From a virus (Duplodnaviria > Caudoviricetes): a stretch of DNA of 57,531 bases. Below are positions 27,217 through 45,087 of this stretch, one piece after another. The number at the start of each line of letters is the position of its first letter. Within the stretch, counting starts at the first letter, position 1. Where the stretch lies: the IMG/VR virus record IMGVR_UViG_3300027777_000042, positions 1-57,531 of that record; one strand, written 5' to 3'. The notes beneath the pieces are model-generated. The model worked only from the letters and a program-made list of their open reading frames with translations, did no database searches and had not been told where the DNA came from. Both the position numbers and the translations under genes were made by a program.

Positions 27217-28191
27217 TTAGATTGCTACTAGTTCTTCGGCCAAATTAACGGCCATTTCTTTATAAGCTATTCCATCACCAAAAAATGCACGATCAATCCG
27301 CACATCTGAGGTTCTACCTTGATGATGATCGACATATTCTGTAACTGCATTAATTAAACCCCAAACAGTATCTTTAGCGGACTTAAGACTGCTACCTTTT
27401 CCAGCACCATTATATAAAGCCATTAGCTGTTGGCTAATACGCTTCGACACAATAGTTTCACCTTTATCGTTTTCGTATGAAGACACAGTTTGAAAGTACT
27501 TTTCAGCTTGTTCCTGTGTGACATGTGATTCAGTCCAGAATTCTAACCTTGTAAGGAATGATGACCATGAAGTTGCAGCCAAACCAAGTTCAGCCTTAAC
27601 TTTATCATGATCAAATGTTGCACGGTGGTTAACACGAACAACGTTTTTAGATTTGCCTGATGTGGCTTCTTGCATTGCAAAACCTAAAGTGTTATTACAT
27701 ACCACACGAACAGATGTGAACATGGCCGTTGTTGCCATTGAACCATCACATGCTGTACCAAGTAATAAATAACCCTTGATTGTATCATCCATGACTTTAG
27801 CTTCTTTACCCATGGAAGCCAATGCCCAGTATTTTCTACCACCACGTAAAACTCCAGCTGTTTCAAGTTCGAAACCAGCTTTATCAGTAAGATCACGGTA
27901 AAACTCTAAAACTTCTTTTGGTTGTACAACATTGTAAGTCTTTGAAACCACTGTCAAAGCATTACCACTGTCGGAACGAACCAAGACTTTTTTACCGGGT
28001 ACTTTATGTGTATCACCATTAAGACGGTACAAGGCATCATGTTCTTCGATGGTGAAGTCCATACCTGCAGCTTGTTGCCATTGCTCGATGCTTTGACCTG
28101 CTTGCATTTGTTGACCAAGTTTGTGCCAAGGCATATCGCCTTTGTATGCAATTGCTGAAAAACCTTTGGTTGAATCGATTTCGTGTGACAT
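27217..28191 (-). CDS. DUF932-family phage/plasmid protein
   Basis: PWHKLG, ETAGVLRGGRKYWALA, DGSMAT, VRVVCNNTL, TVWGLINAVTEYVDH motifs. Confidence 0.85.
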   Translation of the reverse strand: MSHEIDSTKGFSAIAYKGDMPWHKLGQQMQAGQSIEQWQQAAGMDFTIEEHDALYRLNGDTHKVPGKKVLVRSDSGNALTVVSKTYNVVQPKEVLEFYRDLTDKAGFELETAGVLRGGRKYWALASMGKEAKVMDDTIKGYLLLGTACDGSMATTAMFTSVRVVCNNTLGFAMQEATSGKSKNVVRVNHRATFDHDKVKAELGLAATSWSSFLTRLEFWTESHVTQEQAEKYFQTVSSYENDKGETIVSKRISQQLMALYNGAGKGSSLKSAKDTVWGLINAVTEYVDHHQGRTSDVRIDRAFFGDGIAYKEMAVNLAEELVAI

Positions 28192-29215: not shown

Positions 29216-29385
29216 ATAACAATTTCATATACGAATACGACCAACACGAGGCTGATGAACTTCGTCTTCAAGACCAATTTGAACGTAAGCAACGGCAAAA
29301 ATATGCTGCCCATCCTGATTGTAGGGATCCTGATCATCCCGGTTGTGATAGATGCAGTGAAAGTGATGATGACAATGACGACTAG
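29212..29385 (+). CDS. 57-aa Cys/His-motif protein (not in ORF track)
   Basis: MNNNFIYEY...HPDCRDPDHPGCDRC...; ATGA overlap with the upstream gene. Confidence 0.6.
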   Translation: MNNNFIYEYDQHEADELRLQDQFERKQRQKYAAHPDCRDPDHPGCDRCSESDDDNDD

Positions 29386-30037
29386 AAAAGTAGCAATTCT
29401 TTGCCCATCATATGATGCCAAGGTTCATTGTAACTTTTGCATATCTATGGCTGAAATATTTAGATTGGGTTCGCATATTAAAAGTATGTCAATGCATCTA
29501 AATTTTCTTATGCATGAATCTATTATTGAACGTGCTAGAAATCATTTGCTGCAAGATGCTTATGATCAAGGCATGGATGATTTTGTGTTCATAGATACAG
29601 ATCAGTCATTTGATCCTGCTGCATTTTTTGCTGTACTTGGTCATCAAGTTGATGTTGTAGGTATTCCTGTTCGCATGAAGGATAGTGAAGAACATTACAA
29701 TATTAGACCTGAAGACATGAGTCAGCATACATATGATCCATGGCTTGGTTTATTGGAAGTCAAAAGCATTGGCACTGGATTTTTTCGTTTGTCTAGAAAA
29801 GCCGTCACATATTTAATGGATAACTCCATATCATATTTGGATGGCTTCACCACAAGAAAACGTATGTTCCAATGCGATGTATTTGACAATGGTTATGTGT
29901 CGGAAGATATTAACCTGTGTAATAAGCTAATCAATGGCGGATTTAAAGTCTACGCAGATATTAATCACACATGTGCTCATTACGGTGATGCAACATACAC
30001 AGGTAATTTTGCTGACTGGTATAGGAAACAAGTATGA
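29375..30037 (+). CDS. GT-A (family 2-like) glycosyltransferase (start corrected to MTTRKVAIL)
   Basis: VAILCPSY, IERARN, FIDTD (DxD), IGTGF, SEDINLC motifs. Confidence 0.7.
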   Translation: MTTRKVAILCPSYDAKVHCNFCISMAEIFRLGSHIKSMSMHLNFLMHESIIERARNHLLQDAYDQGMDDFVFIDTDQSFDPAAFFAVLGHQVDVVGIPVRMKDSEEHYNIRPEDMSQHTYDPWLGLLEVKSIGTGFFRLSRKAVTYLMDNSISYLDGFTTRKRMFQCDVFDNGYVSEDINLCNKLINGGFKVYADINHTCAHYGDATYTGNFADWYRKQV

Positions 30038-30237
30038 ACTGTCCACATTGTGGTGCTTGGAGTTTTGTAAATTACACTAAAATGCCTAGACGCAGAAGAG
30101 AATGCGCTAATGGACACAGGTTTACCACACAGGAAATATGTATTGATGATCAATTAAAAGAAGCAAAACTAACACGAATGCAAGTAGCAAAACTATTTCA
30201 AAAACGTAACTTAAAGGAAAAATCAAATGATGTATGA
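30034..30237 (+). CDS. NrdR-N-like zinc-ribbon protein
   Basis: MNCPHCG...RRRRECANGHRFTTQE. Confidence 0.7.
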   Translation: MNCPHCGAWSFVNYTKMPRRRRECANGHRFTTQEICIDDQLKEAKLTRMQVAKLFQKRNLKEKSNDV

Positions 30238-30628
30238 TAAAGTAAAAGAATTTAGACTTAAACTTAAACTGCCTGTATCAGATACACCGGCATTATTACA
30301 GCCAGAACACATGAGTTTTTATGCAAGATTTATCATGGAAGAATTAAGCGAACTTATGCGTGCACATGAAAAAGAAAACATGGTTGATGCTGCTGATGCA
30401 ATCACTGATTTAATTTATGTTGCAATGGGTTGTGCTCATCATATGGGTTTACCATTAGAACAGATTTTTAATGTGGTTCATGATGCTAACATGCAAAAAA
30501 CACCTGGTTCAACTAACCGTGGTGTACAACAAGATGCTCAAAAACCTGAAGGTTGGCAGGCACCTGAAGAAAAAATAAATAAAATTTTAAATAAATATTT
30601 GTTTACTTCCCATCAAACCATGGTATAA
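30227..30628 (+). CDS. MazG/PRA-PH-like all-alpha NTP pyrophosphohydrolase
   Basis: EELSEL...DAITDLIYV...VHDANMQK...KPEGW. Confidence 0.8.
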   Translation: MMYDKVKEFRLKLKLPVSDTPALLQPEHMSFYARFIMEELSELMRAHEKENMVDAADAITDLIYVAMGCAHHMGLPLEQIFNVVHDANMQKTPGSTNRGVQQDAQKPEGWQAPEEKINKILNKYLFTSHQTMV

Positions 30629-30691
30629 TCCAACTGTTTACTACGGTAAACAACACTAAACTTTCTTAACTTTCTAAAACAGGAGTATTAA
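30600..30691 (+). promoter_or_regulatory. Promoter plus palindromic operator and translational leader
   Basis: TTTACT-N16-TATAAT with extended TG; TGTTTAC-TACG-GTAAACA palindrome; CTTAACTTTCT; AGGAG. Confidence 0.7.
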
Positions 30692-30912: not shown

Positions 30913-31407
30913 ATGAATATATTTTTCTTACATCGTGTTCCTAACATTGCCGCACTTTACCATTGCGACAAACATGTAGTTAAAATGATTCTAGAATCAG
31001 GTCAACTACTTGCCACATGCCATCACGAATATGGCAATCCAGTTACATGGAAACCAACACATAAAAATCACCCTAGTGCTGTTTGGGTTCGTCAATCCAG
31101 ACTACATTATGACTATGTTAATGCACTTGGTCGTTGTTTATCCAAGGAATTTTATCGTAGGTATGGTCATCATCATAAATCAAGTCAATTGTTTAATGGC
31201 GAATTAGCATATGCACCTAAGCCTATGTATTCAATGCCTTTAACATGGCAAGATCCTCCGCAATGTATGCCTGATGAATGTAAACACGAAGATGCTGTAA
31301 CAGCTTATCAAACTTACTATCGGCATAAAAAGTCTATCATGTCCATGGTATGGTACAAAGGTCAAAATCATTTTACGCCACGTTTTATGGAGTCAGCAAA
31401 TGTCTAA
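30913..31407 (+). CDS. Pyrimidine-dimer DNA glycosylase-like (DenV/Pyr_excise family)
   Basis: MNIFFL...HCDKHVVKMILESGQLL...THKNHPSAVWVR...PPQCMP...AYQTYY. Confidence 0.7.
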   Translation: MNIFFLHRVPNIAALYHCDKHVVKMILESGQLLATCHHEYGNPVTWKPTHKNHPSAVWVRQSRLHYDYVNALGRCLSKEFYRRYGHHHKSSQLFNGELAYAPKPMYSMPLTWQDPPQCMPDECKHEDAVTAYQTYYRHKKSIMSMVWYKGQNHFTPRFMESANV

Positions 31408-31864
31408 TCAGCACAAATGGGATATGCGGTATCTTAATTTAGCTAAGTTAGTTTCAACTTGGTCTAAAGATCCATCTACAAAATGTGGTGCTGTTATTGT
31501 TAACCAGCACAATGAAATTATTAGTGTTGGGTTTAATGGTCTGCCTAAACTTGTCACTGATAACGAGGAAAGGTTGACAAATCGTGACATTAAGTTGAAA
31601 ATGATAATTCATGCAGAAAGAAATGCTATTATTTTCGCTAAAAAAGATCTTAGGAATTGCACAATTTATACATATCCAATGATGGCTTGTAGTGAATGTG
31701 CAGCAATGATCATTCAGGCTGGATTTAGTCGCCATGTTTCCATGTTAAGCCCAAATAAGCATTGGCAAGATTCATGGAAAATTGCAGGCGAAATGTTTGA
31801 TGAAGCTGGTATGGTTGTGGATATCTATACAAAGTCAGAATTGGAGAATGAAAATGTTGATTAA
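31400..31864 (+). CDS. dCMP deaminase
   Basis: SKDPSTKCGAVIV, GFNG, HAERNA, CSEC zinc motifs. Confidence 0.9.
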   Translation: MSNQHKWDMRYLNLAKLVSTWSKDPSTKCGAVIVNQHNEIISVGFNGLPKLVTDNEERLTNRDIKLKMIIHAERNAIIFAKKDLRNCTIYTYPMMACSECAAMIIQAGFSRHVSMLSPNKHWQDSWKIAGEMFDEAGMVVDIYTKSELENENVD

Positions 31865-32228
31865 TGAATTAATAGACCAAATTGTTGAAATTAAAATTAA
31901 ACGTGACGAATGCACAGCATTAGATAAAGAACTTTCTAAAACACAAGCAATGTTAGAAGGTGATTTAATGAATTTAATGTCTACAGCAGGTACAACCAAA
32001 GCTGCTTCTGAAGCTGGTCATTCTGTTACAATGAAAAAAGTTGTTCATCCAACTATTATCGATTGGGATTTGTTTTATGATTATGTTACAAAGACTAAAA
32101 GCTTTGACTTATTGCATAAACGTTTAAGTTCTACAGCTTTCAGAGATCGCTGGGAAGCTAAGGAGGAAATACCCGGTTCCTCCTCTGCAGAAGTCTGGGG
32201 TATCACCGTTACTAAATCACGTAAATAA
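31854..32228 (+). CDS. Hypothetical replication-module protein (start corrected to MLINELI)
   Basis: GGAG RBS; coiled coil then DWDLFYDYV...LLHKRLS...IPG. Confidence 0.55.
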   Translation: MLINELIDQIVEIKIKRDECTALDKELSKTQAMLEGDLMNLMSTAGTTKAASEAGHSVTMKKVVHPTIIDWDLFYDYVTKTKSFDLLHKRLSSTAFRDRWEAKEEIPGSSSAEVWGITVTKSRK

Positions 32229-32237
32229 GGAATTAAT

Positions 32238-32975
32238 ATGTCTAAAAATCAAGTTGCATTATTCGAAAACGAATTGGAAAAAATGGCTCAAGCTTCTTTG
32301 GAGGCTGAAAAAGGTAGTGCAGGAATTACATTCCTTAGCACTAAAGGTGGCATACTAACTTACAAGGATAATCCTATTGCAGGTAATAGCCTTGAGGTTG
32401 TTGTTATTGCCTCACCTGTTGAAAGGCTTTACTATACAGCTCGTTACGATCCTACAAAGCCTGCAGGTCCTGTGTGTTTTGCCTTAGGTCAAACCATGAC
32501 TGGTTTAAAGCCTAATGTTAACTCAGAGCAAAAACAGTCTGACACTTGTGCTAACTGCCCTAAAGATCAATGGGGTAGTTCAACAACAGGTGGTAAAGGT
32601 AAAGCTTGTGCTGAAAAACGTAGACTTTTAATCGTGACAGCAGATTCCATCGGTTCTATTGATGCAGTTAATATGGCTGAAGTTGCAGCATTACGAGCAC
32701 CAGTGACCTCAGTAAAAGCATTTGCTGTTTATTTGCAAAAGATTGCTAATGCAGTTAAACGTCCACTTTCAGCAGTGGTTACTAAAATTAGTCTTGTGCC
32801 TGATCCAAAAACACAATTCAAACTTGAATTTGATTTTGTTCGTGCAATTGATGATGTTGAAATCATTAAAGCTTTAATCACTAGAGGTGAAAAAGAAATG
32901 ACTAATGCAGTGGAAACTGCTGGTATTGATGATGGTGAAACCACAAATGCCGTTTCTCAGTCAACAAAGTATTAA
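32238..32975 (+). CDS. Putative ssDNA-binding/annealing protein with Cys4 site
   Basis: PVCFA...CANCPKDQWGS...GKACAEKRRL, acidic tail, directly upstream of the polymerase. Confidence 0.55.
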   Translation: MSKNQVALFENELEKMAQASLEAEKGSAGITFLSTKGGILTYKDNPIAGNSLEVVVIASPVERLYYTARYDPTKPAGPVCFALGQTMTGLKPNVNSEQKQSDTCANCPKDQWGSSTTGGKGKACAEKRRLLIVTADSIGSIDAVNMAEVAALRAPVTSVKAFAVYLQKIANAVKRPLSAVVTKISLVPDPKTQFKLEFDFVRAIDDVEIIKALITRGEKEMTNAVETAGIDDGETTNAVSQSTKY

Positions 32976-32976
32976 G

Positions 32977-34797
32977 ATGTCTGATCCTATCTTCCTAGAC
33001 TTTGAAACGGAAGCAATCGGTCCTAGACCTAAATTTTACCCACCAAAACCTGTTGGTTTAGCGGTATTAGATAGGTCTGGACAATTTCAATCCGGTTATT
33101 TTGCATTTGCACATGACACAGGTAATAACTCTAGCTTTAAAGCAGTTAGAGATATTCTTGTGCAGATCTATGAAAGTGGTAGACATATTTGTTTTCATAA
33201 TGCCATGTTTGATATGGCAGTTATTATGGAACATTTTGATCTACCATTTCTTAATCCTATGCGTGTTGAAGATACTTTGGTGTTAGCCTTTTTATATGAT
33301 CCATATGTAAGAAGTTTAGCACTAAAAGAACTTTGTAAGGAATGGTTAGGTGTTCAACCAGAAGAACGTGATGAGCTATTTGAGTGGCTTATTGCTAATA
33401 TTCCTGAAGTTAAAAAGAAACCTAAACAAGCTGGTGCATTTATTGCGCGTGGTCCTGCACAATTGGTTGGTAAATATGCAAATGCAGATGTAAGACTAAC
33501 AGCATTGTTGTATGACTTTACACGTGAAGTACAAGCTACAATGTCCGATGCTTATATTCGTGAAATAACATTGATGCCAATTTTACTTGAAAATTCTAAA
33601 CTTGGTGTTCGTGTTGATCGTGATGGAATGCTTGAATGTCAAACACAGTCATTACATGATATTGGATTATGCGAACAATGGCTTAATACATATTTCAATG
33701 TTTCAGAAATCAATTACAACTCAGGTCAGCAATTGGTTGATTTAATTCAAACCAAAGGTTGTTTTTATGATAATAAACGTTGGCCAAAGAGTGATAAAGG
33801 CACATTACTATCCGATAAAGAAACACTAAAAGACATGATTACCGATGAAGTTCTTGTAACTGTACTTCGGTATCGTGACTTATTGGTTAAACTTAATGGA
33901 ACATATATTGAGCCATGGTTGGAACAGTCAGCATTTAATGGTAGGATTTACACTGAATGGAATACTGTTAGAGGTGAAGTTGGTGGCACAAGAACTGGTA
34001 GATTATCAGCCAAACCAACACTTCAGACTATGCCAACCAAGGAACCTCAGTCTAAACTACCGCCTGAATTGCAAAGTGTTGTATTACCTAGAGTTAGGAA
34101 ATACATACTTCCAGATGAAGGTGATGTGGTTGTTTCAGTGGATTTCCAAGCACAGGAACTTAGACTATTTGCACACTTTGAGGATGGTAAATTAGCAGCA
34201 CAGTACCGTAAAGACCCTAAAGCAGATCTACATGCATTTGCAGCAGGTATTATGTCTGAAAAAGCTGGTAGACCTATCATTAGGGATTATGCAAAGGTTA
34301 TGTCATTTGGCATATTGTATGGTGCAGGGCCTAAAAAGATCAGTGAAATGCTAGGTATTCCATACCCTGAGGCAAAGAACTTAATTGACTTGTACAAGAC
34401 TGAAGTTGCACCTGGTCTTGACAAGATCAATAATGATTTAACCAATAGGTATAGACTTCGTGCACCATTTACCACTATTGGTGGTAGATTGGTGAAAGGT
34501 GAACCACCTAAATTTATCAACGGCAAAATGATGGAATTCGGATTTAAGTCATTAAACACATTGATTCAAGGTTCCGGCGCTGATATGAATAAGAAAGCTA
34601 TGATTGACTATTACAAAACAGCCAAAGATAGCAGACTTCTTTTATCATTACATGATGAACTAATCATTTCAGTCAGAGAAGAGCATGCAGAACGTGAAGC
34701 TGAAAACTTAGCTAATTGCATGCTTAATTGCTTTAAATTAGATGTCCCATTAATTGCTGAACCAAAAATCGGCCGTAACTTTGCAGAGATTAAATAA
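32977..34797 (+). CDS. polA: Family A DNA polymerase with 3'-5' exonuclease (start corrected to MSDPIFLDFET)
   Basis: ExoI DFETE, ExoII HNAMFD, ExoIII YANAD; TRTGRLS; motif A DFQAQELR; motif B AKVMSFGILYG; IQGSGAD; motif C LHDE. Confidence 0.95.
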   Translation: MSDPIFLDFETEAIGPRPKFYPPKPVGLAVLDRSGQFQSGYFAFAHDTGNNSSFKAVRDILVQIYESGRHICFHNAMFDMAVIMEHFDLPFLNPMRVEDTLVLAFLYDPYVRSLALKELCKEWLGVQPEERDELFEWLIANIPEVKKKPKQAGAFIARGPAQLVGKYANADVRLTALLYDFTREVQATMSDAYIREITLMPILLENSKLGVRVDRDGMLECQTQSLHDIGLCEQWLNTYFNVSEINYNSGQQLVDLIQTKGCFYDNKRWPKSDKGTLLSDKETLKDMITDEVLVTVLRYRDLLVKLNGTYIEPWLEQSAFNGRIYTEWNTVRGEVGGTRTGRLSAKPTLQTMPTKEPQSKLPPELQSVVLPRVRKYILPDEGDVVVSVDFQAQELRLFAHFEDGKLAAQYRKDPKADLHAFAAGIMSEKAGRPIIRDYAKVMSFGILYGAGPKKISEMLGIPYPEAKNLIDLYKTEVAPGLDKINNDLTNRYRLRAPFTTIGGRLVKGEPPKFINGKMMEFGFKSLNTLIQGSGADMNKKAMIDYYKTAKDSRLLLSLHDELIISVREEHAEREAENLANCMLNCFKLDVPLIAEPKIGRNFAEIK

Positions 34798-36905: not shown

Positions 36906-38130
36906 CAAAGTGCTTATTCTTGCGCCATTAAGACCAACATATGCTGTTTGGCCTGAAGAAATCAATAAGTGGGATAACTTTAATGATTTAACTATTAGTA
37001 TTTTGCATGGGCCAAATAAAGATCATCGACATGGTGATAAGTCTTTTATCCATGTTATTAATTTTGAAGGTCTACAATGGTTAGCTAAAAAGAATCATTT
37101 CCCATATGATGCTTTAATTGTTGATGAAATAAGCTATTTAAAAAATACTAGAACAGAACGGTTTAAAGCACTTTCACCAATGCTAAATAACTTTAAGCGT
37201 AGATTCGGTTTAACTGGTTCACCTGCACCAAACAGTCTAATGGATGTGTTTGGACCACAATTAGTTATTGACCGTGGTGCAACATTTGGTAAGTACATTA
37301 CACATTTTAGAACAGCATATTTCCATCCAACTGGATACGGTGGCTATGAATGGGCGTTAAAGGTAAATGCCGATAAAGAAATATATGAAAAACTTGCAAA
37401 TAAAGTTTTACGTATGAAAGCAGAAGACTATCTTGACATGCCTGAGCTAATTACAAATAAAGTCCATGTAACTTTACCTGCAAAAATAAAAGTTATGTAT
37501 AAACAATTAGAAGATAAATTGCTATTGGATATTAATGACAATAAAGTTACAGCATCCACGGCTGCAGTTGCCGTCGGAAAATGTCAGCAAATAGCTAATG
37601 GTGCAATTTATCTAGATGGTGAAGATAAAGACATACAAATTTTACATGATGAAAAAATAAACGCAGTTTTAGAACTTATTGAAGGTATGAATGGCAAACC
37701 ATGTTTAATTGGTTATCATTTTAGACATGATTTAATTAGATTACAAAAAGCTTTTCCTAATGCACCATTTATTGGATCAGGTATTACAGGAAAAGAAATG
37801 CAAACAATTATTGATGATTGGAATCAGGGTAAACATCCAGTTTTACTAGCACATCCGCAAAGTGCTGGTCACGGATTAAACCTACAAGGTTCTGGTCATG
37901 CAGTTATATGGTTTAGCAATACTTGGTCCTTGGAAATCTATGAACAGTTTATCCGACGTTTATGGCGCCAAGGACAGAGGAATAACATAATTGTTCATCA
38001 AGTTATTGCTAAAGATACTATTGATGAAGCTATCGTTGCAGCCACAAGCCGTAAAGATAAATCGCAACAAGCTTTGATGAATGCCATTAAAGACTATGCG
38101 AATAGAGAAACTATTTTAGAAATAAGTTAA
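36757..38130 (+). CDS. SNF2-family helicase
   Basis: PHPYQ, DPGLGKT, IVDEIS, LTGSP, GHGLNLQ, RLWRQGQ. Confidence 0.9.
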   Translation: MYWNPHPYQMKAVQFLVENGSGQLWLDPGLGKTSITLQALKILRAAKAINKVLILAPLRPTYAVWPEEINKWDNFNDLTISILHGPNKDHRHGDKSFIHVINFEGLQWLAKKNHFPYDALIVDEISYLKNTRTERFKALSPMLNNFKRRFGLTGSPAPNSLMDVFGPQLVIDRGATFGKYITHFRTAYFHPTGYGGYEWALKVNADKEIYEKLANKVLRMKAEDYLDMPELITNKVHVTLPAKIKVMYKQLEDKLLLDINDNKVTASTAAVAVGKCQQIANGAIYLDGEDKDIQILHDEKINAVLELIEGMNGKPCLIGYHFRHDLIRLQKAFPNAPFIGSGITGKEMQTIIDDWNQGKHPVLLAHPQSAGHGLNLQGSGHAVIWFSNTWSLEIYEQFIRRLWRQGQRNNIIVHQVIAKDTIDEAIVAATSRKDKSQQALMNAIKDYANRETILEIS

Positions 38131-38219
38131 GTAAACTGTTTACTTACATCAAAAACATGTTATAATTAAACTGTTTACTCAAGTAAACGCTTAACTTTCT
38201 AAACTTCAAAGGAACTAAA
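38128..38219 (+). promoter_or_regulatory. Promoter with two GTTTAC/GTAAAC palindromes and TTAACTTT leader, driving the NDT-HD-ThyX operon
   Basis: TAAGTAAAC-T-GTTTACTTA over the -35; TTTACT-N16-TATAAT (TGnTATAAT); GTTTACT-CA-AGTAAAC; CTTAACTTTCT; AAGGA. Confidence 0.7.
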
Positions 38220-38498
38220 ATGGTAATTACTACAAGATCAATCATAAAATCAGCTATGGCAATCGATGAATTAGCTTACACACTGGATAATATTTCCGCT
38301 GATGATAAAAAGAACATCGAAGATTATACAGATTCAGAAATCTTGCATGAAGCTAATTACGTTTTAAGTTTGTTTATTTCCCCACATGAATCACATTGGA
38401 ATGCAGAAGATTTGCGTGGCGAAAATGGTTTAACCCAGCAAAAGTGGGCTAAAGCACAAGTTCGCAAACTTCAATCATTCATCAAAAAATATAGTTAA
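38220..38498 (+). CDS. Hypothetical protein
   Basis: 92 aa, first gene behind the promoter. Confidence 0.6.
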   Translation: MVITTRSIIKSAMAIDELAYTLDNISADDKKNIEDYTDSEILHEANYVLSLFISPHESHWNAEDLRGENGLTQQKWAKAQVRKLQSFIKKYS

Positions 38499-38504
38499 AC
38501 AACT

Positions 38505-38518
38505 GCCCCTTCGGGGGT
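38505..38518 (+). other. UUCG-tetraloop hairpin between genes
   Basis: GCCCC-TTCG-GGGGT, no U-tract. Confidence 0.4.
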
Positions 38519-38533
38519 TCAAAGGAAACAATC

Positions 38534-38995
38534 ATGAAACCCATAAGTCGACAACCTCGTGTTTATATTGCAAGTCCATTCTTTAATCCGTATGAAGTAT
38601 CTATCATAGAACAAATTAAAGATGTACTAGCTAAAAATGCATTAACATTTTTCAGCCCTAAGGATGATATGTTATACAACCCGGACACAATGAAACCTGC
38701 TGATGTGTTAAAGGTTAACATTGATGCATTGTACTCAACTGATTTAACTGTTTGTGTCACCGATGGAAAAGATCCTGGTACATTATTTGAAGCAGGTTGG
38801 TGTTATGCTCAAGGTGTACCTATTATTTATGTGTGGCTAACCGGTAAAAAAGATCAAAAGTTTAATTTAGTCCTTGCTGCATCTGGTGCAGTTGTCCGCT
38901 CAATTAACCAATTGGATATAGCCATTAAAGAAATCAAGCAGTCAGGTGCATTTGAACTTAAAGTATGGGATGATAAGGAGATTAAGTATGAGTAA
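38534..38995 (+). CDS. Nucleoside 2-deoxyribosyltransferase / nucleotide N-glycosidase family protein
   Basis: VYIASPFF, FSP, DGKDPGTLFEAG (catalytic Glu), NLVL motifs. Confidence 0.85.
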   Translation: MKPISRQPRVYIASPFFNPYEVSIIEQIKDVLAKNALTFFSPKDDMLYNPDTMKPADVLKVNIDALYSTDLTVCVTDGKDPGTLFEAGWCYAQGVPIIYVWLTGKKDQKFNLVLAASGAVVRSINQLDIAIKEIKQSGAFELKVWDDKEIKYE

Positions 38996-39155
38996 GACCA
39001 AACAAGAAGTCAGGGATGAAATCAATGAATTGTATGGCGCAATAATGGCATTAGGTACAGCTATGCAGCATATACATGACTTGCAGACAGAAAAAACAAA
39101 ACAAATGTTTGCATTAAATCAAATGATTAAAGATATGAAAGATCATGATGAATGA
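38988..39155 (+). CDS. Small coiled-coil protein (start corrected to MSKTKQ)
   Basis: AAGGAG RBS before the ATG at 38988. Confidence 0.55.
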   Translation: MSKTKQEVRDEINELYGAIMALGTAMQHIHDLQTEKTKQMFALNQMIKDMKDHDE

Positions 39156-39660
39156 ACAGTATGAAAAGTTCTTCATGGATAGTTATACATTAGAGCACAC
39201 AAAGCGGTACAGTATGAAACCTGTACTGCTACAAGAAAGTGTGGCAACACATAGTTATTTTGTGGCTTTAGCTGTATTACTACTCCGTAATGACTATAAG
39301 TTTGACGTGGATAAGGCAATTAAGATTGCTTTGTGCCATGACTTACCTGAGATGTATATATCTGATGTAAACCATATGGTCAAGAAGCAGTTTCCTAATG
39401 TTGCTAAAGCATTAAAAGAAGCTGAAGAACAAATTGCCAATGATATGCCATGGCATGTTTCAATGTGGATTAGGGAATATAACTCAGACACACCAGAAGC
39501 CTTGGCAGTACATTATGCTGATGCACTACAATGTAAGCAATATGCTGACAATGAAATTCAACTGGGGAACCAGGGATACATGACTGATGTGTACCGTAAT
39601 AGTTGTAGAAGACTATACGAACTTGAGCAAAAACTTAAACCTTATAAGGTGGTTCCATGA
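39145..39660 (+). CDS. HD-domain phosphohydrolase (YfbR/DatZ-like)
   Basis: KRY...ESVATHS...LCHDLPE...SDV...ADAL. Confidence 0.85.
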   Translation: MMNEQYEKFFMDSYTLEHTKRYSMKPVLLQESVATHSYFVALAVLLLRNDYKFDVDKAIKIALCHDLPEMYISDVNHMVKKQFPNVAKALKEAEEQIANDMPWHVSMWIREYNSDTPEALAVHYADALQCKQYADNEIQLGNQGYMTDVYRNSCRRLYELEQKLKPYKVVP

Positions 39661-40082
39661 CAACGACAGATCAAATTTTACAACAGAGAGGCGCAATTTA
39701 CGGTGATTTTTTTGAAGGGATAACATTGGAATCAAACGTTCTTAATGAAATATGTGTTAGGTATGAATCACATCATGGTGAATCATTACCTATGGAGTAC
39801 TATTTATTCTTTTCAAAGATCGTTATGAAATTATCTAGGCTGGCCATCACACCAGACCATATAGATAGTTGGGTAGATATTGCAGGTTATGCAAGGTTAG
39901 TAGAAATTCATTTAACAACACTTCAAGGGGAAAATAATGCCAAAAGTCAACAAAGATCAGATGCCGAATCTACAGAAGATGCACACGGAGATCAAATTTC
40001 ACAAGAAACCGGATCCGATAAACTTCATGAACCAACTAGAAAATATCAACGTAAAGATAGTGGGAGCACCATCGATACCTGA
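39657..40082 (+). CDS. DUF6378-like protein (putative all-alpha dNTP diphosphohydrolase relative)
   Basis: ILQQRGAIYGDF...KLSRL...HIDSWVDIAGYARL. Confidence 0.7.
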   Translation: MTTTDQILQQRGAIYGDFFEGITLESNVLNEICVRYESHHGESLPMEYYLFFSKIVMKLSRLAITPDHIDSWVDIAGYARLVEIHLTTLQGENNAKSQQRSDAESTEDAHGDQISQETGSDKLHEPTRKYQRKDSGSTIDT

Positions 40083-40860
40083 ATTTAGAAAGATTATTGC
40101 AGTATTCTTAATGAATACATGGAATGATAAACTTCAGTACACATTTGCCGAAGAAGATATTGACCAAACTATTGATGAATTGTTTAGGTTTGAATTGCTA
40201 CCAACTGCAATGGAAACCATTAATATTACATGGACAGTTAATGGCATGGATATGGTAGATACCACCCATTTAATTCGCCATAGACTATTTAGCTTTTCAG
40301 CTCAAGTCTGTAGTGATAGAGATATGCGTGATGACAATGTGATGGTTAAACCTTCAATCATGGCTAATAAGGATTTCTATGAACGTTACCAAAGCATTAC
40401 TAATGCAGCTCGTGATCTTTATATGGATATGCTTGATAGCGGTGAAGTCCATGGCCTTGATGCTCGCACTATTATGCCTAGGAATTTTGAACATTTTTAT
40501 ATGGTTCGCTGTACTATTAAAGATCTTATGGGATACTGCATTATGCGTGGTGATGAACAAATCCAAACCACGGTAGATAATGTCATTGCAATGAAGTTAT
40601 GGCTTGAAGTATTGAAGATCTATCCATTCCTTAAAGGATTAGTGGACTTCAGAAAACCAGATGCTTTCTATCAAAAACAATGTGGTAAAGGTAAAACAAA
40701 TATATTCCCACCAAACGCAAAGAATGACAACTTTAACTGGTGTGAAGAACAATTTGTTTACAAACGGCCTAGAGATGAATTTCCAGGCAGTGATTCTTAC
40801 TTACAAATCCGTGAGTTTTTATTAGCACAAATGGATGCTATTGAAAAGAGATACGTATGA
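39937..40860 (+). CDS. thyX: Divergent ThyX-fold flavin-dependent enzyme
   Basis: THLIRHRLFSFS, LYMDMLDSG...ARTIMP, MRGDEQIQ; signature Ser displaced and N-terminal His motif altered. Confidence 0.75.
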   Translation: MPKVNKDQMPNLQKMHTEIKFHKKPDPINFMNQLENINVKIVGAPSIPEFRKIIAVFLMNTWNDKLQYTFAEEDIDQTIDELFRFELLPTAMETINITWTVNGMDMVDTTHLIRHRLFSFSAQVCSDRDMRDDNVMVKPSIMANKDFYERYQSITNAARDLYMDMLDSGEVHGLDARTIMPRNFEHFYMVRCTIKDLMGYCIMRGDEQIQTTVDNVIAMKLWLEVLKIYPFLKGLVDFRKPDAFYQKQCGKGKTNIFPPNAKNDNFNWCEEQFVYKRPRDEFPGSDSYLQIREFLLAQMDAIEKRYV

Positions 40861-41105
40861 AACGATGGTATGAATGTGAAAAGAAGCTTAAAACGTTTAA
40901 GCAACGTGAACGTAGAAGACTCTTCCATGAGTTCAAACGTCAATATGCAGAAAACTGGGCTGATGTCACACTTCATCCATTGTATGACGTAGTAGTCAAT
41001 TTAAAAAGACAAATGGAAGTTGCTGAATTTTATGATATGCATAAACAGTCACTTAACAGAAGTGTGAAAGTCTATAAACAATATTTAGAAAGTATATATG
41101 GATGA
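40857..41105 (+). CDS. Hypothetical basic protein
   Basis: 82 aa, ATGA-coupled to the thyX-like gene. Confidence 0.55.
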   Translation: MKRWYECEKKLKTFKQRERRRLFHEFKRQYAENWADVTLHPLYDVVVNLKRQMEVAEFYDMHKQSLNRSVKVYKQYLESIYG

Positions 41106-41250
41106 AGCAATAATCAAAAAAACTTACAATGACTGGGTGGAATTACTTAAGCGTTCAAACAATGAAGATATGCTTAATGATCCATATTCCATATGGTATG
41201 AAGCATTTCATGTGGCAACTATCTTAATCGAAAGAAAAAATGACGCCTAA
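41098..41250 (+). CDS. 50-aa hypothetical protein (not in ORF track)
   Basis: MDEAIIKKTYNDWVELLKRS...ERKNDA fills the gap and overlaps both neighbours. Confidence 0.55.
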   Translation: MDEAIIKKTYNDWVELLKRSNNEDMLNDPYSIWYEAFHVATILIERKNDA

Positions 41251-41920
41251 GATAGGTATCTTTACACCATTACATGGTAGACCTGATTTTGCTAGAATGG
41301 TGGCAATGCAGTTTGCATTTCAGACTGTATTGCCAACACATGTAGCATTTTATCAAAATGGCCCATTTGAAAATTATCAATGGGCTATCAATGATCTTAA
41401 ATTGCCATACCGATATGACTGGATTTACAATGGCACAACTGATAAACATCAAGAAAATTGGTATGGTATACCATTAAAAATGCTGCTTAGTTATGATTGC
41501 GATTATTATTTTTGGTGCGACCAAGATGATATCTATCAGTCAGATCATATTTCAAATAGTATAGCAGACTTAATTCTTAATGATGCAGATATTGTGCTAA
41601 ATAGCTTAGGTGGCTTATTAAAAGTAAATAGCAAAAACTTTACTTATGAAGTAACTAGATTCAAAGCGCATGACCCAGATGGTATTAGCTCATCTATGGC
41701 ATTTAATAAACGGTTTGCTAAAGAGTTGTACATTGACTTGTATAAAAATTTAGATACTGTGGCTCATTTTTGGGCTGATAATGTGGTAAGCCGAGAAACT
41801 ATGCCTAAGTTTAAAGTGTATCGTAATCCTACAAGGCATACAGTAACGTATCTATGCCATAACGGAACTACTTCATCGGCACATTGGTTAGAAGATTTAC
41901 CGCCAGTAAAAACTAATTAG
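41240..41920 (+). CDS. GT-A (family 2-like) glycosyltransferase
   Basis: KIGIFTPLHGRP, YFWCDQDDIY (DxDD), WAD, terminal H motif. Confidence 0.7.
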   Translation: MTPKIGIFTPLHGRPDFARMVAMQFAFQTVLPTHVAFYQNGPFENYQWAINDLKLPYRYDWIYNGTTDKHQENWYGIPLKMLLSYDCDYYFWCDQDDIYQSDHISNSIADLILNDADIVLNSLGGLLKVNSKNFTYEVTRFKAHDPDGISSSMAFNKRFAKELYIDLYKNLDTVAHFWADNVVSRETMPKFKVYRNPTRHTVTYLCHNGTTSSAHWLEDLPPVKTN

Positions 41921-43191: not shown

Positions 43192-45087
43192 TCACCTTTG
43201 TCCGCTAAGTTGGCGATAAAACTTATTATAGTTTTCTGTAATTGTATTATAAGGTGAGTTATCATCTGTAAAAAAATGATGTGCACCTAGTTTAGGGTTG
43301 CTTGCATAAGGCTTATAAGCATTAAACATAGATAACTTTGCATTGTTATACAACAAATGTTTTGCAGCCCATTCTTGAACTACAGATGCAGGATCTTTTT
43401 CTGAAGCCATTGGTGTTTTATACAAACGATCTTCAAAGTTTGTAGGATTACTACCCAATACTTTTCCACGTTCTGCAATACTTGCAAGATAGATATTACC
43501 TAAATTACGCTGCACAGTTCTTAAATCTTTTAACTGTTGTTCATTTAAGTTACCATATTCTGCAAATGTCTGCACAGGCAAACTGATGGGAAACCTACCA
43601 ACTTTTGCACCTTCATCCATGGCATGTTTAAGACCTGCCCACCAAGAACCTGAACCTAAAATATTGAAAACACTAGGATTAGTCTTGGCTATCTTTAGCA
43701 CTTCTTCAATTTCATCATTCTGATTTTTAATAACACCAGGTGTTGATGCATACAATTCACTAACATGTGCTTTCCAATTCTTATCATTTTCAGTAATACG
43801 GTCAGAGATCACTTTGTTTTGTGTTGCAAGGGGTAAACCTTCAAGATCAGATGCTTGATTCCCTAGCATTGCAGCAGGTGCACCAGCAGGCATGTTAGTA
43901 GGTAATGGGCCTTTGTTCGGGGCACTTACTTGTGGCGTAGTTTGTTGCTGTGGTTGCGCAAATGAAAGAATAGATTGAGGATCAATTGCTTTACCATTGT
44001 GCTGTATTCCAAACTCAACATGTGGCCCAGTGACCTTCCCTGTGGCCCCTAGAGTACCAATTGGTTGGTTAACCCCTATAACATCACCAAGTTTTACAGT
44101 AGCATCTTTCAGATGTGCATAGTAAGATGTTGATCCATCAGCATGCTTAACTTCTACACGATTGCCATAACCACCTACAGGGCCTACTGAAGAGACTGTT
44201 CCCGGGATAATTGCATTAACAGGTGAACCTTCTTTACCTGCAATATCAATACCACTATGGAATTCTTTAGTCTTGTTATCAAATGGATTTAATCTTTCAC
44301 CAAATGGACTAGATATTCTGCCATTTGCAACAGGTAAAGGCACAGATGCTGTAGTTACAGGCTTATTAGTATTACCTTGCATTAAAGATGGATCAATATA
44401 GCTGTTCAACATGCTTACCACACCAGGGCCTTGTTCAGAAATTAACTTAGCGATGTCAAATCCAAATTTACCTTTGTTAATGTTTTGTCCTAATTCAGAT
44501 GCCGCAACTTCACGTTCTTTTAAAGGTAATTCTTTAGTGAGTTTGTAGTTTCTGTCTATTTCACCTTGTCTAATTTTTTCACGTTCAACTGCAGCAGTTC
44601 CTGCTTTAAATACTGTCTCGCCTAAGCTTTTATCCAATGAGCCAATCATCATCATTTTTTCAGGCGTTAATTTTGCAAATGCACTTGCTGGCATATCACC
44701 TGACTCAATTGCTGATTGTATTTGCACAGGATCTGTTGTGCCTAATTCAGGGCCCATTAAACCCCCTAGCATCTTTAATGCTTTAGCCTTATTAGACACT
44801 TCATATTGTTGACCAGCCAACTGGGCGGTCATTAAAGCCCGTTGTGGCGCAAGTGATTCTTCAGCGGCTTGTTGTCTACCAAGTTCTGTTGCTGTTCTAC
44901 CAATGGCTTCACCAGCACTTCCAGTTTTGCCTGGGTCAAATAACTGACCTGCTAGTGCAAAGTAATTAGGCTGAACTCTTTGTGTTAATGCAGATAAAGC
45001 ATTCTTAATTGCTGCATTGTATGATTCTGTTGCAGTGTCATCACCGCCTGCAACAATTGGTATAGAAGAAGATGTTGGAAGTGCCAT
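43192..45087 (-). CDS. Internal virion protein with M23 (LytM-like) peptidase domain
   Basis: ISSPFGER...FHSGIDI...GYGN...YAHL...TGPHVEF. Confidence 0.75.
   Translation of the reverse strand: MALPTSSSIPIVAGGDDTATESYNAAIKNALSALTQRVQPNYFALAGQLFDPGKTGSAGEAIGRTATELGRQQAAEESLAPQRALMTAQLAGQQYEVSNKAKALKMLGGLMGPELGTTDPVQIQSAIESGDMPASAFAKLTPEKMMMIGSLDKSLGETVFKAGTAAVEREKIRQGEIDRNYKLTKELPLKEREVAASELGQNINKGKFGFDIAKLISEQGPGVVSMLNSYIDPSLMQGNTNKPVTTASVPLPVANGRISSPFGERLNPFDNKTKEFHSGIDIAGKEGSPVNAIIPGTVSSVGPVGGYGNRVEVKHADGSTSYYAHLKDATVKLGDVIGVNQPIGTLGATGKVTGPHVEFGIQHNGKAIDPQSILSFAQPQQQTTPQVSAPNKGPLPTNMPAGAPAAMLGNQASDLEGLPLATQNKVISDRITENDKNWKAHVSELYASTPGVIKNQNDEIEEVLKIAKTNPSVFNILGSGSWWAGLKHAMDEGAKVGRFPISLPVQTFAEYGNLNEQQLKDLRTVQRNLGNIYLASIAERGKVLGSNPTNFEDRLYKTPMASEKDPASVVQEWAAKHLLYNNAKLSMFNAYKPYASNPKLGAHHFFTDDNSPYNTITENYNKFYRQLSGQR

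Follow-up and report, generated by a model that had tools for sequence, protein, structure and literature searches.

What does a thymidylate synthase (TS)-like flavoenzyme do in a phage operon that also encodes enzymes degrading nucleotides? The question is raised by the operon at positions 38,534 to 41,920 of the IMG/VR virus record IMGVR_UViG_3300027777_000042 (Duplodnaviria; Caudoviricetes), a 57.5-kb record with a CheckV completeness of 95%, the whole 57,531-nt stretch of which is referred to as the window. In the initial annotation, the operon was read as a base-modification system, in which a ThyX-fold enzyme with altered motifs makes a 5-modified pyrimidine nucleotide, hydrolases purge the canonical one, and a glycosyltransferase (GT) decorates the resulting base; its account of the gene content and coordinates holds after family searches and, for the GT, a fold model (as listed in Table 1). 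To judge from its sequence, the ThyX-fold protein, referred to as ThyX-like, is not an ordinary thymidylate synthase. The chances are about even that the core of the operon is a four-part nucleotide-pool module, with thymidine-pool enzymes arranged around a neofunctionalised ThyX-fold synthase of 5-substituted deoxyuridine monophosphate (dUMP). The more specific reading, that the ThyX-fold clade would make a non-canonical 5-substituted dUMP (hydroxymethyl, hydroxy or other, possibly folate-free) and, together with a nucleoside 2-deoxyribosyltransferase family protein (NDT), a nucleotidase and a pyrophosphatase, would replace the thymine of DNA, is put forward tentatively, at a probability of about 0.42.

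First of all, the AlphaFold model of ThyX-like (predicted local distance difference test, pLDDT, 93.9) has ThyX or PolB as the top Foldseek matches listed, with E-values down to 2.2e-10, target-normalised TM-scores of 0.60–0.77 and identities of 13–18%. The protein falls below the thyX equivalog model TIGR02170 (37.9 bits against a cut-off of 87.9), and it carries extensions of about 60 aa at the N-terminus and about 70 aa at the C-terminus compared with canonical ThyX. When 1.84 billion representatives were searched exhaustively with HMMER, only 198 proteins reached E<=1e-3, including 75 at E<=1e-10. In a FastTree phylogeny of 99 rows, a 57-row group (50 ThyX-like proteins and seven more search matches) lies across a branch with a Shimodaira–Hasegawa (SH)-like support of 99, and all 27 canonical rows, including copies resident in the same phages as ThyX-like proteins, lie across another with a support of 96, the tree being read without a root and SH-like support not being a bootstrap.

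The active site was tallied column by column over 50 clade members and 26 canonical sequences. It has been described that S88 and Y91 of Thermotoga maritima ThyX are strictly conserved and critical, with methylation 1000-fold slower in Y91 mutants, and that H53 stacks on the pterin of folate (PMC11940539). The corresponding S-x-R-Y loop (S88, R90 and Y91) is kept in the canonical sequences, with S in 26, R in 26 and Y in 24, whereas in the clade its columns mostly hold Cys (37), Gly (38) and Asp (47), Tyr is found in 0/50, and an Arg or Lys sits two positions past the canonical Arg. At the folate-stacking column, His occurs in 2/50 clade members and is Thr in the window protein; this column is not universal in the canonical sample either, being His in 12/26 and Lys in 12/26. 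In contrast, the RHR motif and the Arg residues that bind dUMP are retained in the clade: R114 in 50/50, H115 in 40/50, R116 in 50/50, R177 in 49/50 and R204 in 50/50. For the Mycobacterium tuberculosis enzyme, it has been described that dUMP is bound by R95, R199, R87, S105 and R107, and that Y108 covers C5 and N5 as a lid (PMC6514825). R204 aligns with R199 of that enzyme in a profile-to-PDB alignment, and the equivalent of R87, a phosphate-binding Arg, is R in 0/50 clade members and in 14/26 canonical sequences. The clade shares a conserved Tyr162 with canonical ThyX and has near-invariant residues of its own, namely H111, D127, Y188, D214 and N215.

From this tally and the published residue roles, it follows that the parts holding a uracil nucleotide over the flavin have been kept, and that the parts serving one-carbon transfer and solvent access have been rebuilt. 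That is to say, the "altered motifs" of the initial annotation can now be expressed in numbers, both in the equivalog score and in the columns. Since the uracil-binding Arg R204 is invariant, a uracil nucleotide is favoured as the substrate and dCMP is ranked low.

The second line of evidence is paralogy. All 12 of 12 loci from large-phage fragments (L088–L099) have a canonical ThyX about 5 kb ahead of the ThyX-like gene, and in the four of these records that were searched (14–52% complete, 44–176 kb) the canonical copy scores 118–124 bits and the ThyX-like copy 62–73 bits. The record of locus L083 likewise combines a canonical ThyX (182 bits) with a ThyX-like gene that is directly followed by a ThyA-like gene. 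Because canonical ThyX is co-resident in the 12 jumbo-phage loci and in the L083 record, ThyX-like is a paralogue; score, tree, motifs and these 13 co-residences agree with the earlier proposal that it is a diverged paralogue and not the canonical synthase. The ThyA-like gene of L083 is itself diverged (L083:9039-9947, PF00303 53.8 bits), and a short ThyA-like remnant lies directly past the ThyX-like gene at L082:9002-9598. A short gene with weak ThyA-family similarity also directly follows ThyX-like in two 100% complete genomes, G001 and G004.

ThyX-like is accompanied by three proteins upstream of it. The NDT scores 47.6 bits with PF05014 (cut-off 28.8); its nearest PDB relatives are a Lactobacillus purine deoxyribosyltransferase (1s2d, E=5.2e-7) and an NDT, and the catalytic Glu of its G-T-x-F-E-x-G segment is aligned with the Glu of 1s2d and 6evs. 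In this family, an Asp goes with recognition of a 5′-OH and a Ser with that of a phosphate. The HD protein scores 55.1 bits with PF12917 and 63.8 bits with PF13023, has PDB matches to 1xx7 and HDDC2, and retains the H...HD...D metal motif, HDLPE aligning with HDLGE of 1xx7. Its best PHROG is phrog_7076, annotated as "dATP triphosphohydrolase" (E=9e-15), and it stays below the YfbR equivalog NF003009 (30.9 bits against a cut-off of 122); either monophosphates or triphosphates may be its substrates. For the DUF6378 protein, the atlas matches are DUF6378 clusters. It was considered as a hidden MazG-like pyrophosphatase and this was rejected, since its hhalign probability against the MazG-like family of the distant loci is 0.1%. 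Its low-complexity tail overlaps the ThyX-like gene by 146 nt (39937-40082); as the DUF6378 proteins of relatives are shorter (about 92–131 aa) and overlap ThyX by only a few codons, this tail looks like a recent shift of the stop codon.

A comparison of gene neighbourhoods, which the initial annotation had suggested, shows that the ThyX clade co-occurs with NDT and a nucleotidase across very different phages. Metagenomes frequently contain close relatives: out of 98 IMG/VR stretches from one scan, 80 were retained as close loci (ThyX identity to the window 75–96%; genes scored by tblastn). Among these 80, NDT was found in 70, the HD gene in 76 and DUF6378 in 80, the ten loci without NDT having less than 1.9 kb upstream of ThyX, and in all 70 loci holding the four genes the order NDT-HD-DUF6378-ThyX is colinear. 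A further 19 distant loci carry ThyX-like proteins from other branches of the clade, whose representatives are 36–41% identical to the window protein. There, NDT lies within 8 kb of ThyX-like in 16/19, and the three loci without it have 0–5.1 kb of sequence downstream, the NDT of their nearest relatives lying about 7 kb downstream. DUF6378 had no match in the 19 distant loci (phmmer with the window protein, E<=1e-3), and as far as tested it has been seen only in the window's own sub-clade. The HD gene is adjacent in seven loci, and in 12 HD-less loci a dUTPase_2-like domain fused to an NT5C-type 5′-deoxynucleotidase sits directly upstream of ThyX-like. That a non-homologous enzyme of the same activity class occupies the same place speaks more strongly than anything else for dephosphorylation as a part of the pathway. 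When the 19 distant loci, the window and Geobacillus phage GR1 were clustered, a MazG/dUTPase_2-like family was found in 17 of these 21 loci, the window's own MazG-like gene falling outside it. In summary, the ThyX-like gene is obligately associated with NDT and a nucleotidase, and usually with a nucleoside triphosphate (NTP) pyrophosphatase, inside replication modules that hold PolA, helicase, primase, RecA or Pol III alpha. The module is carried by a phage group recurring in freshwater metagenomes, by several jumbo-phage lineages and by phage GR1.

In other lineages the module also holds a thymidylate kinase (TMK)-like gene. In L082, NDT carries a thymidylate-kinase-like P-loop domain as an N-terminal fusion (phrog_761 E=7.9e-9, the one case tested), and length and clustering suggest the same fusion in L086, L087 and L088. 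Standalone TMK-like genes are found in L083 (PF02223 E=1.2e-6), in L100, in L084 (weak, phrog_761 2.2e-4) and in GR1 (weak). In L083, a uracil-DNA glycosylase (UDG) gene is inserted between the kinase and NDT.

Further genes adjoin the module in the jumbo phages. At L089, an HhH-GPD glycosylase (L089:5202-5624) and a full Fpg/Nei glycosylase (L089:5639-6442) lie directly upstream of the MazG-like, nucleotidase and ThyX-like genes, with a glutamine-synthetase-like gene nearby (L089:2734-3750), and the glycosylases recur in ten other jumbo-phage loci; in these loci, base-excision enzymes for oxidised pyrimidines thus adjoin a putative pyrimidine modifier. At L088, the kinase-NDT gene is followed by an S-adenosylmethionine (SAM)-dependent methyltransferase (L088:9801-10556) and an NAD-dependent sugar epimerase/dehydratase (L088:10621-11607), whose family stands next to NDT in five loci; these are possible downstream tailoring genes.

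In the pathway proposed here, dUMP would be supplied by the dCMP deaminase, which is its likely source, and the ThyX-like enzyme would bind the uracil nucleotide over its flavin and, through the rebuilt loop, yield a 5-substituted dUMP other than dTMP. Meanwhile, the MazG-like pyrophosphatase, the HD enzyme and NDT would degrade the competing dTTP, dTMP and dT to nucleoside and base, and base exchange with uracil by NDT may return the deoxyribose as deoxyuridine. A kinase, host-encoded here and phage-encoded in other lineages, would then raise the new nucleotide to a triphosphate that can be incorporated into DNA. The most likely product would be 5-hydroxymethyl-dUMP (hmdUMP), with 5-hydroxy-dUMP as the alternative. 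The exocyclic-methylene intermediate of canonical ThyX is known from trapping experiments; because the Tyr lid that shields this intermediate from water is absent here, hydroxymethyl is the most economical guess. Hydroxylation by flavin and O2 is encouraged as the alternative, since the folate-stacking His is lost, a flavin reductase is adjacent in GR1, and a ThyA homologue of RB69 and DLP3 has been described to make 5-hydroxy-dCMP (PMC13326640).

Phages whose DNA contains 5-hydroxymethyluracil (hmU) or uracil (U) possess dTTPase and dTMP nucleotidase activities, and the removal of thymidine nucleotides supposed here would parallel them. SPO1 and T4 make their 5-modified pyrimidines through ThyA-family hydroxymethylase pathways. 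These, like RB69 and DLP3, resemble the present case in that a TS paralogue for a 5-modified deoxynucleoside monophosphate (dNMP) stands among dCMP deaminase, pyrophosphatase, nucleotidase, kinase and variable GTs; however, the fold there is ThyA and here the unrelated ThyX, a flavoenzyme by origin, the classical pathways do not include NDT, and the window lacks the kinase. The 2-aminoadenine (Z-genome) phages combine a biosynthetic paralogue, PurZ, with an HD phosphohydrolase, DatZ, and a MazG-like enzyme, MazZ, to shape the pool. This design principle is shared, the window's HD protein even finding a dATP triphosphohydrolase PHROG as its best match, but theirs is a purine system without ThyX and without NDT. 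Polyoxin synthesis offers PolB, a UMP/dUMP C5-methylase in which the ThyX fold has likewise left its housekeeping role (4p5a/4p5b, target-normalised TM-score 0.69–0.70), although PolB is bacterial, belongs to secondary metabolism, shows about 17–18% identity and has no NDT or HD context. With canonical ThyX itself, ThyX-like has in common the fold, RHR, the R177 and R204 equivalents and Tyr162, and it differs in the replaced S-x-R-Y loop, the missing folate-stacking His, the terminal extensions, the score under the equivalog cut-off and its separate clade.

Among GenBank phages, window-type NDT matches 13 of 50,697 records, the best being Geobacillus phage GR1, which is also the only one of these records to match ThyX-like (38% identity). 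Its module reads NDT, thioredoxin, HD, an annotated glycosyltransferase of 459 aa, TMK-like, RNase H, a nitroreductase-family flavin reductase and ThyX-like. The second-best NDT match, Streptococcus phage vB_SagM-GXN1, has NDT, a YfbR-like HD protein and a protein of 411 aa that matches Thy1 below threshold and shares 40% identity (E=9e-99) with SP15_130 of Bacillus phage SP-15. In SP-15, about half of the thymine is described as hypermodified; a tandem NDT (SP15_127) stands two genes before the degenerate Thy1 SP15_130, and an HD 5′-nucleotidase (SP15_090) and a UDG lie elsewhere in the replication region. Its authors noted two Thy1 genes and put forward the hypothesis that gp9 acts as the thymidylate synthase and gp130 as the hydroxymethyluridylate (hmdUMP) synthase (PMC5977210). 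Listeria phage LIS04, of the same species as SP-15, has the same pairing of NDT and degenerate Thy1. SP-15, LIS04 and GXN1 therefore resemble the window in having NDT close to a diverged Thy1/ThyX, with an HD 5′-nucleotidase in the genome (SP-15) or adjacent (GXN1), and in SP-15, as in the jumbo-phage loci, there is another Thy1 gene of a more canonical type. They differ in that SP15_130 and the GXN1 protein are 411–413 aa long and have lost RHR, that the SP-15 NDT is a tandem double domain, that SP-15 has a separate hypermodification gene cluster with no equivalent in the window, and that the function of gp130 is a published hypothesis. Orthology of the GXN1 protein with the window protein was also considered and is not supported (BLASTP E=0.7).

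Another thymine-modified phage touches the same family. Yersinia phage YerA41, stated to be heavily T-modified (PMC13697223), carries an NDT-like gene, 4–5 kb downstream of which lie a MazG-like gene and an HAD deoxyribonucleotidase; gene 086 (L105:6001-6537), annotated as "mannosyltransferase", matches the window NDT (28% identity, E=3e-6) and is more likely an NDT-family protein. The literature search found no demonstrated ThyX-fold synthase of a modified nucleotide, the SP-15 hypothesis being the only one found, and nothing on phage GR1 or vB_SagM-GXN1. A TS paralogue with pool-shaping enzymes is already known, and for SP-15 a version from the ThyX family has been put forward as a hypothesis. 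New here are a clearly delimited, widespread clade of the ThyX fold whose active site is altered in specific ways, the finding that it resides alongside canonical ThyX, and a conserved NDT/nucleotidase/kinase module that includes non-orthologous replacement.

Several points weigh against the proposed pathway. In the window phage, ThyX-like is the only TS-family gene and stands alongside a dCMP deaminase, which looks like plain dTMP supply, and the co-resident "canonical" copies of the jumbo phages are themselves atypical, with Lys at the folate-stacking His column and KHR for RHR. SP15_130 is not supported as an orthologue of the window clade (hhalign probability 3%, E=0.014), so that the link to SP-15 rests on module architecture and not on orthology. 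Searches with phrog_761 and PF02223 found no phage-encoded dNMP kinase in the window phage; the caveat about a missing kinase raised in the initial annotation thus holds for this phage, with other lineages carrying a TMK-like gene inside the module. Furthermore, no Pfam match to an enzyme of DNA-level thymidine hypermodification was obtained among 34 proteins, which covered the plus-strand early region and four flanking minus-strand genes. Finally, in phage 3-521, where examined among the Lactobacillus/Levilactobacillus records that make up seven of the 13 NDT matches, NDT adjoins a thymidine kinase, an ordinary salvage context; these Herelleviridae share an NDT homologue (28–29% identity) directly beside a nucleoside or nucleotide kinase, and differ from the window in having no adjacent ThyX-like or HD gene and in that the kinase is a thymidine kinase and not TMK-like.

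In the likelier of two rival explanations, ThyX-like is a genuine, fast-evolving ThyX and NDT, nucleotidase, kinase and deaminase shift the pools towards dT and dA for an AT-rich genome (35–42% GC), as ordinary thymidylate supply or salvage. Apart from the sole TS-family gene beside a deaminase and the Lactobacillus salvage arrangement, it can draw on three complete or near-complete genomes (G003, G009 and GR1) in which ThyX-like is the sole Thy1 match and PF00303 has none, on the retained RHR and nucleotide-binding Arg residues, on a window GC content of 0.34–0.47, and on the observation that, across the 80 close loci, no other protein of the region is as well conserved as ThyX (median identity 79%, against 72% for PolA), as expected of an essential enzyme; in roseophage R7L, NDT, dCMP deaminase and TS have been read as conversion towards thymidine (PMC11981692). 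This account fits the window phage taken alone; the paralogy, the lost motifs and the linkage to a nucleotidase are poorly explained by it. The residues for canonical turnover, S88 and Y91, are replaced throughout the clade and the H53 His is rarely kept; canonical ThyX is co-resident in 13 phage contexts, where redundancy is hard to invoke in a clade this old; enzymes stripping phosphate and base are tightly linked to ThyX-like, even by non-orthologous replacement; and window-type NDT is otherwise very rare in phages. Supply or salvage is judged less likely than the proposed module.

MilA/MilB and BcmA/BcmB pair a C5-modifying enzyme with an N-glycosidase or transferase of the NDT fold. A product in the form of a free base or nucleoside, or a manipulation of host pools (e.g., counter-defence) instead of a DNA precursor, would agree with this analogy, with the NDT fold being common to CMP/hydroxymethyl-CMP hydrolases, with a module that always holds enzymes driving nucleotides towards nucleoside and base, and with the loss of the R87-equivalent phosphate-binding Arg, but it is improbable, as the PDB search places the window NDT far nearer to true NDT/purine deoxyribosyltransferase (PTD) enzymes (E=5e-7) than to MilB/BlsM (weak matches, E=0.014–0.08), the module sits among replication genes, the frequent TMK-like dNMP kinase points forward to deoxynucleoside triphosphates and DNA, and no TGT- or DpdA-like base-exchange enzyme was found among the proteins scanned from part of the window.

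If thymine replacement by the ThyX-fold module is correct, TS-paralogue base replacement would have arisen on both of the unrelated thymidylate synthase folds, hundreds of "ThyX" annotations in aquatic-phage metagenomes would be wrong, and a phage lineage recurrent in freshwater would have modified DNA, with effects on escape from restriction and CRISPR, on metagenomic recovery and on nanopore base-calling. The link between NDT and nucleotidase is new information and suggests a role, open to test, for the NDT genes of SP-15 and YerA41, whose thymine is hypermodified, and the cultured phages GR1 and GXN1 put the question within direct test.

Glycosylation, which the initial annotation had made a part of the system, does not hold up as such. 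The GT at the operon end (GT226) is present in 0/80 close loci, so that its expected co-occurrence with the ThyX clade was not found, and both GT226 and the second GT candidate upstream are absent from five related genomes, three of them complete. As both are specific to the window phage and absent from relatives, glycosylation is placed outside the core. In the window phage only, two accessory GT-A enzymes could, as a guess, decorate a hydroxylated base, a step that is not conserved; a cell-surface target is equally possible. Variable GTs are likewise known from T-even phages. The AlphaFold model of GT226 (pLDDT 84.3) was built from its eight homologues, which are all that a search of 5.8 billion proteins yielded; it has a GT-A fold, with SpsA as its top Foldseek match (E=2.5e-10), WrtF and TarP among the other matches and a query-normalised TM-score of about 0.6, and the motif C93-D94-x-D96 is invariant in the eight sequences. 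GT226 has no match in Pfam, PHROG or NCBIfam, nor was it found to resemble any known DNA glycosyltransferase. The second GT that had been noted upstream is probably the protein at 29255-30037, which has a hydrophobic N-terminus, V-A-I-L-C-P-S-Y-D, I-D-T-D and S-E-D motifs, and tblastn matches in eight records at 22–25% identity, three of the eight with transferase-type annotations (putative glycosyltransferase, polysaccharide biosynthesis, A197-type transferase) and the rest hypothetical or unannotated; it has no Pfam match. Homology between the two candidates was rejected (hhalign probability 0.2%). In two of ten inspected relatives, an unrelated ORF of about 250 aa occupies the cargo slot.

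Table 1. Features of the operon and of the upstream nucleotide genes in the window.
Feature	Coordinates	Strand	Basis or remark
Operon	38220/38534-41920	+	NDT, HD, DUF6378, ThyX-fold protein, two small ORFs, GT-A-fold glycosyltransferase
Promoter-like site	38139..38166	+	TTTACT-16-TATAAT with extended -10 TG; 10/12 matches; consensus match only
92-aa ORF, no assigned function	38220..38498	+	First gene past promoter-like site; no family match
GC hairpin	38506-38520		After the 92-aa ORF
NDT, 153 aa	38534..38995	+	PF05014 E=2.2e-12; phrog_7995 E=1.9e-22
69-aa ORF, doubtful gene in variable spacer	38946..39155	+	Weak PHROG match 2.3e-4 only
HD phosphohydrolase, YfbR/HDDC2/OxsA-like group, 171 aa	39145..39660	+	PF13023 E=2.3e-17; PF12917 (YfbR-like) E=1e-14
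DUF6378 protein, 141 aa	39657..40082	+	Domain at residues ~1-95; PF19905 E=5e-7, 30.3 bits (cut-off 27.1)
ThyX-fold flavoenzyme paralogue, divergent, 307 aa	39937..40860	+	Module core; PF02511 E=7.4e-14, 52.4 bits (cut-off 24.8)
82-aa ORF, no assigned function	40857..41105	+	Follows ThyX-like gene; no family match
50-aa ORF, no assigned function	41098..41250	+	No family match
GT-A-fold glycosyltransferase candidate (GT226), 226 aa	41240..41920	+	Fold model; strain-specific cargo at operon end
Second GT candidate, GT-A-like	29255..30037	+	D-T-D motif; start probably at internal Met
MazG/PRA-PH-like NTP pyrophosphohydrolase	30227..30628	+	PF01503 E=3.8e-17; phrog_671 E=1.1e-24
dCMP deaminase	31400..31864	+	PF00383 E=7e-18; phrog_174 E=6.7e-38
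PolA	32905-34797		Confirmed by family search

The genes of the operon overlap by 4–11 nt, except for the long overlap between the DUF6378 tail and the ThyX start, and in this respect the operon is as compact as it had been described. Its supposed own promoter stands in part: the sole strong promoter-like site precedes the 92-aa ORF and not NDT directly, and promoter-like sites are not enriched in the region (16 found against 20.5 expected from shuffles). This site is overlapped at its -35 by the palindrome AGTAAACTGTTTACT (38130-38144; arms AGTAAAC and GTTTACT around a central T). A second copy, AAACTGTTTACT, lies 35 nt downstream (38168-38182), and a copy with one mismatch follows the MazG-like gene (30631-30642); there are four matches to the palindrome against 0.77 expected, and 2/100 shuffles reach four. 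The palindrome may be a phage operator or an early-promoter element. Of the small ORFs, scored by tblastn in the 80 close loci, the 82-aa ORF is present in 66 (median identity 38%), the 50-aa ORF in 30, and the 92-aa and 69-aa ORFs in none, and the 69-aa ORF may not be a gene. In the ten relatives inspected, the operon ends 1–3 short ORFs past ThyX.

The window phage is distant from described phages. Blastn of the operon against the GenBank phage records gave no match, the closest PolA among them is 33% identical, and a scan of 185,579 species genomes with the window protein, an approach that detects close relatives only, found no relative. No tRNA genes were found in the window. Parts of the stretch occur in 20 public runs from 10 studies, all of them assembled contigs and none listed as RNA, comprising 14 freshwater, two aquatic and one marine run and three labelled only "metagenome".

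The MazG-like gene, the dCMP deaminase and PolA, which had been noted upstream of the operon, are borne out by Pfam and PHROG searches. The upstream region also has a PD-(D/E)XK nuclease and an SNF2 helicase, and between these genes lies a weak VRR-NUC-like match under the Pfam cut-off. Between the dCMP deaminase and PolA lies a conserved gene pair (31782-32228 and 32238-32975) resembling Pam3 gp33-like (DUF7307, E=7.4e-4) and Pam3 gp34-like proteins, the first of which is labelled by PHROGs as a minor head protein, which is odd at this position. On the minus strand, a DUF932 protein (27217-28191, E=5.9e-60) stands at the divergent junction ahead of the early operon, and a 631-aa protein with an M23 peptidase domain (43192-45087) is found among the structural genes converging on the operon end.

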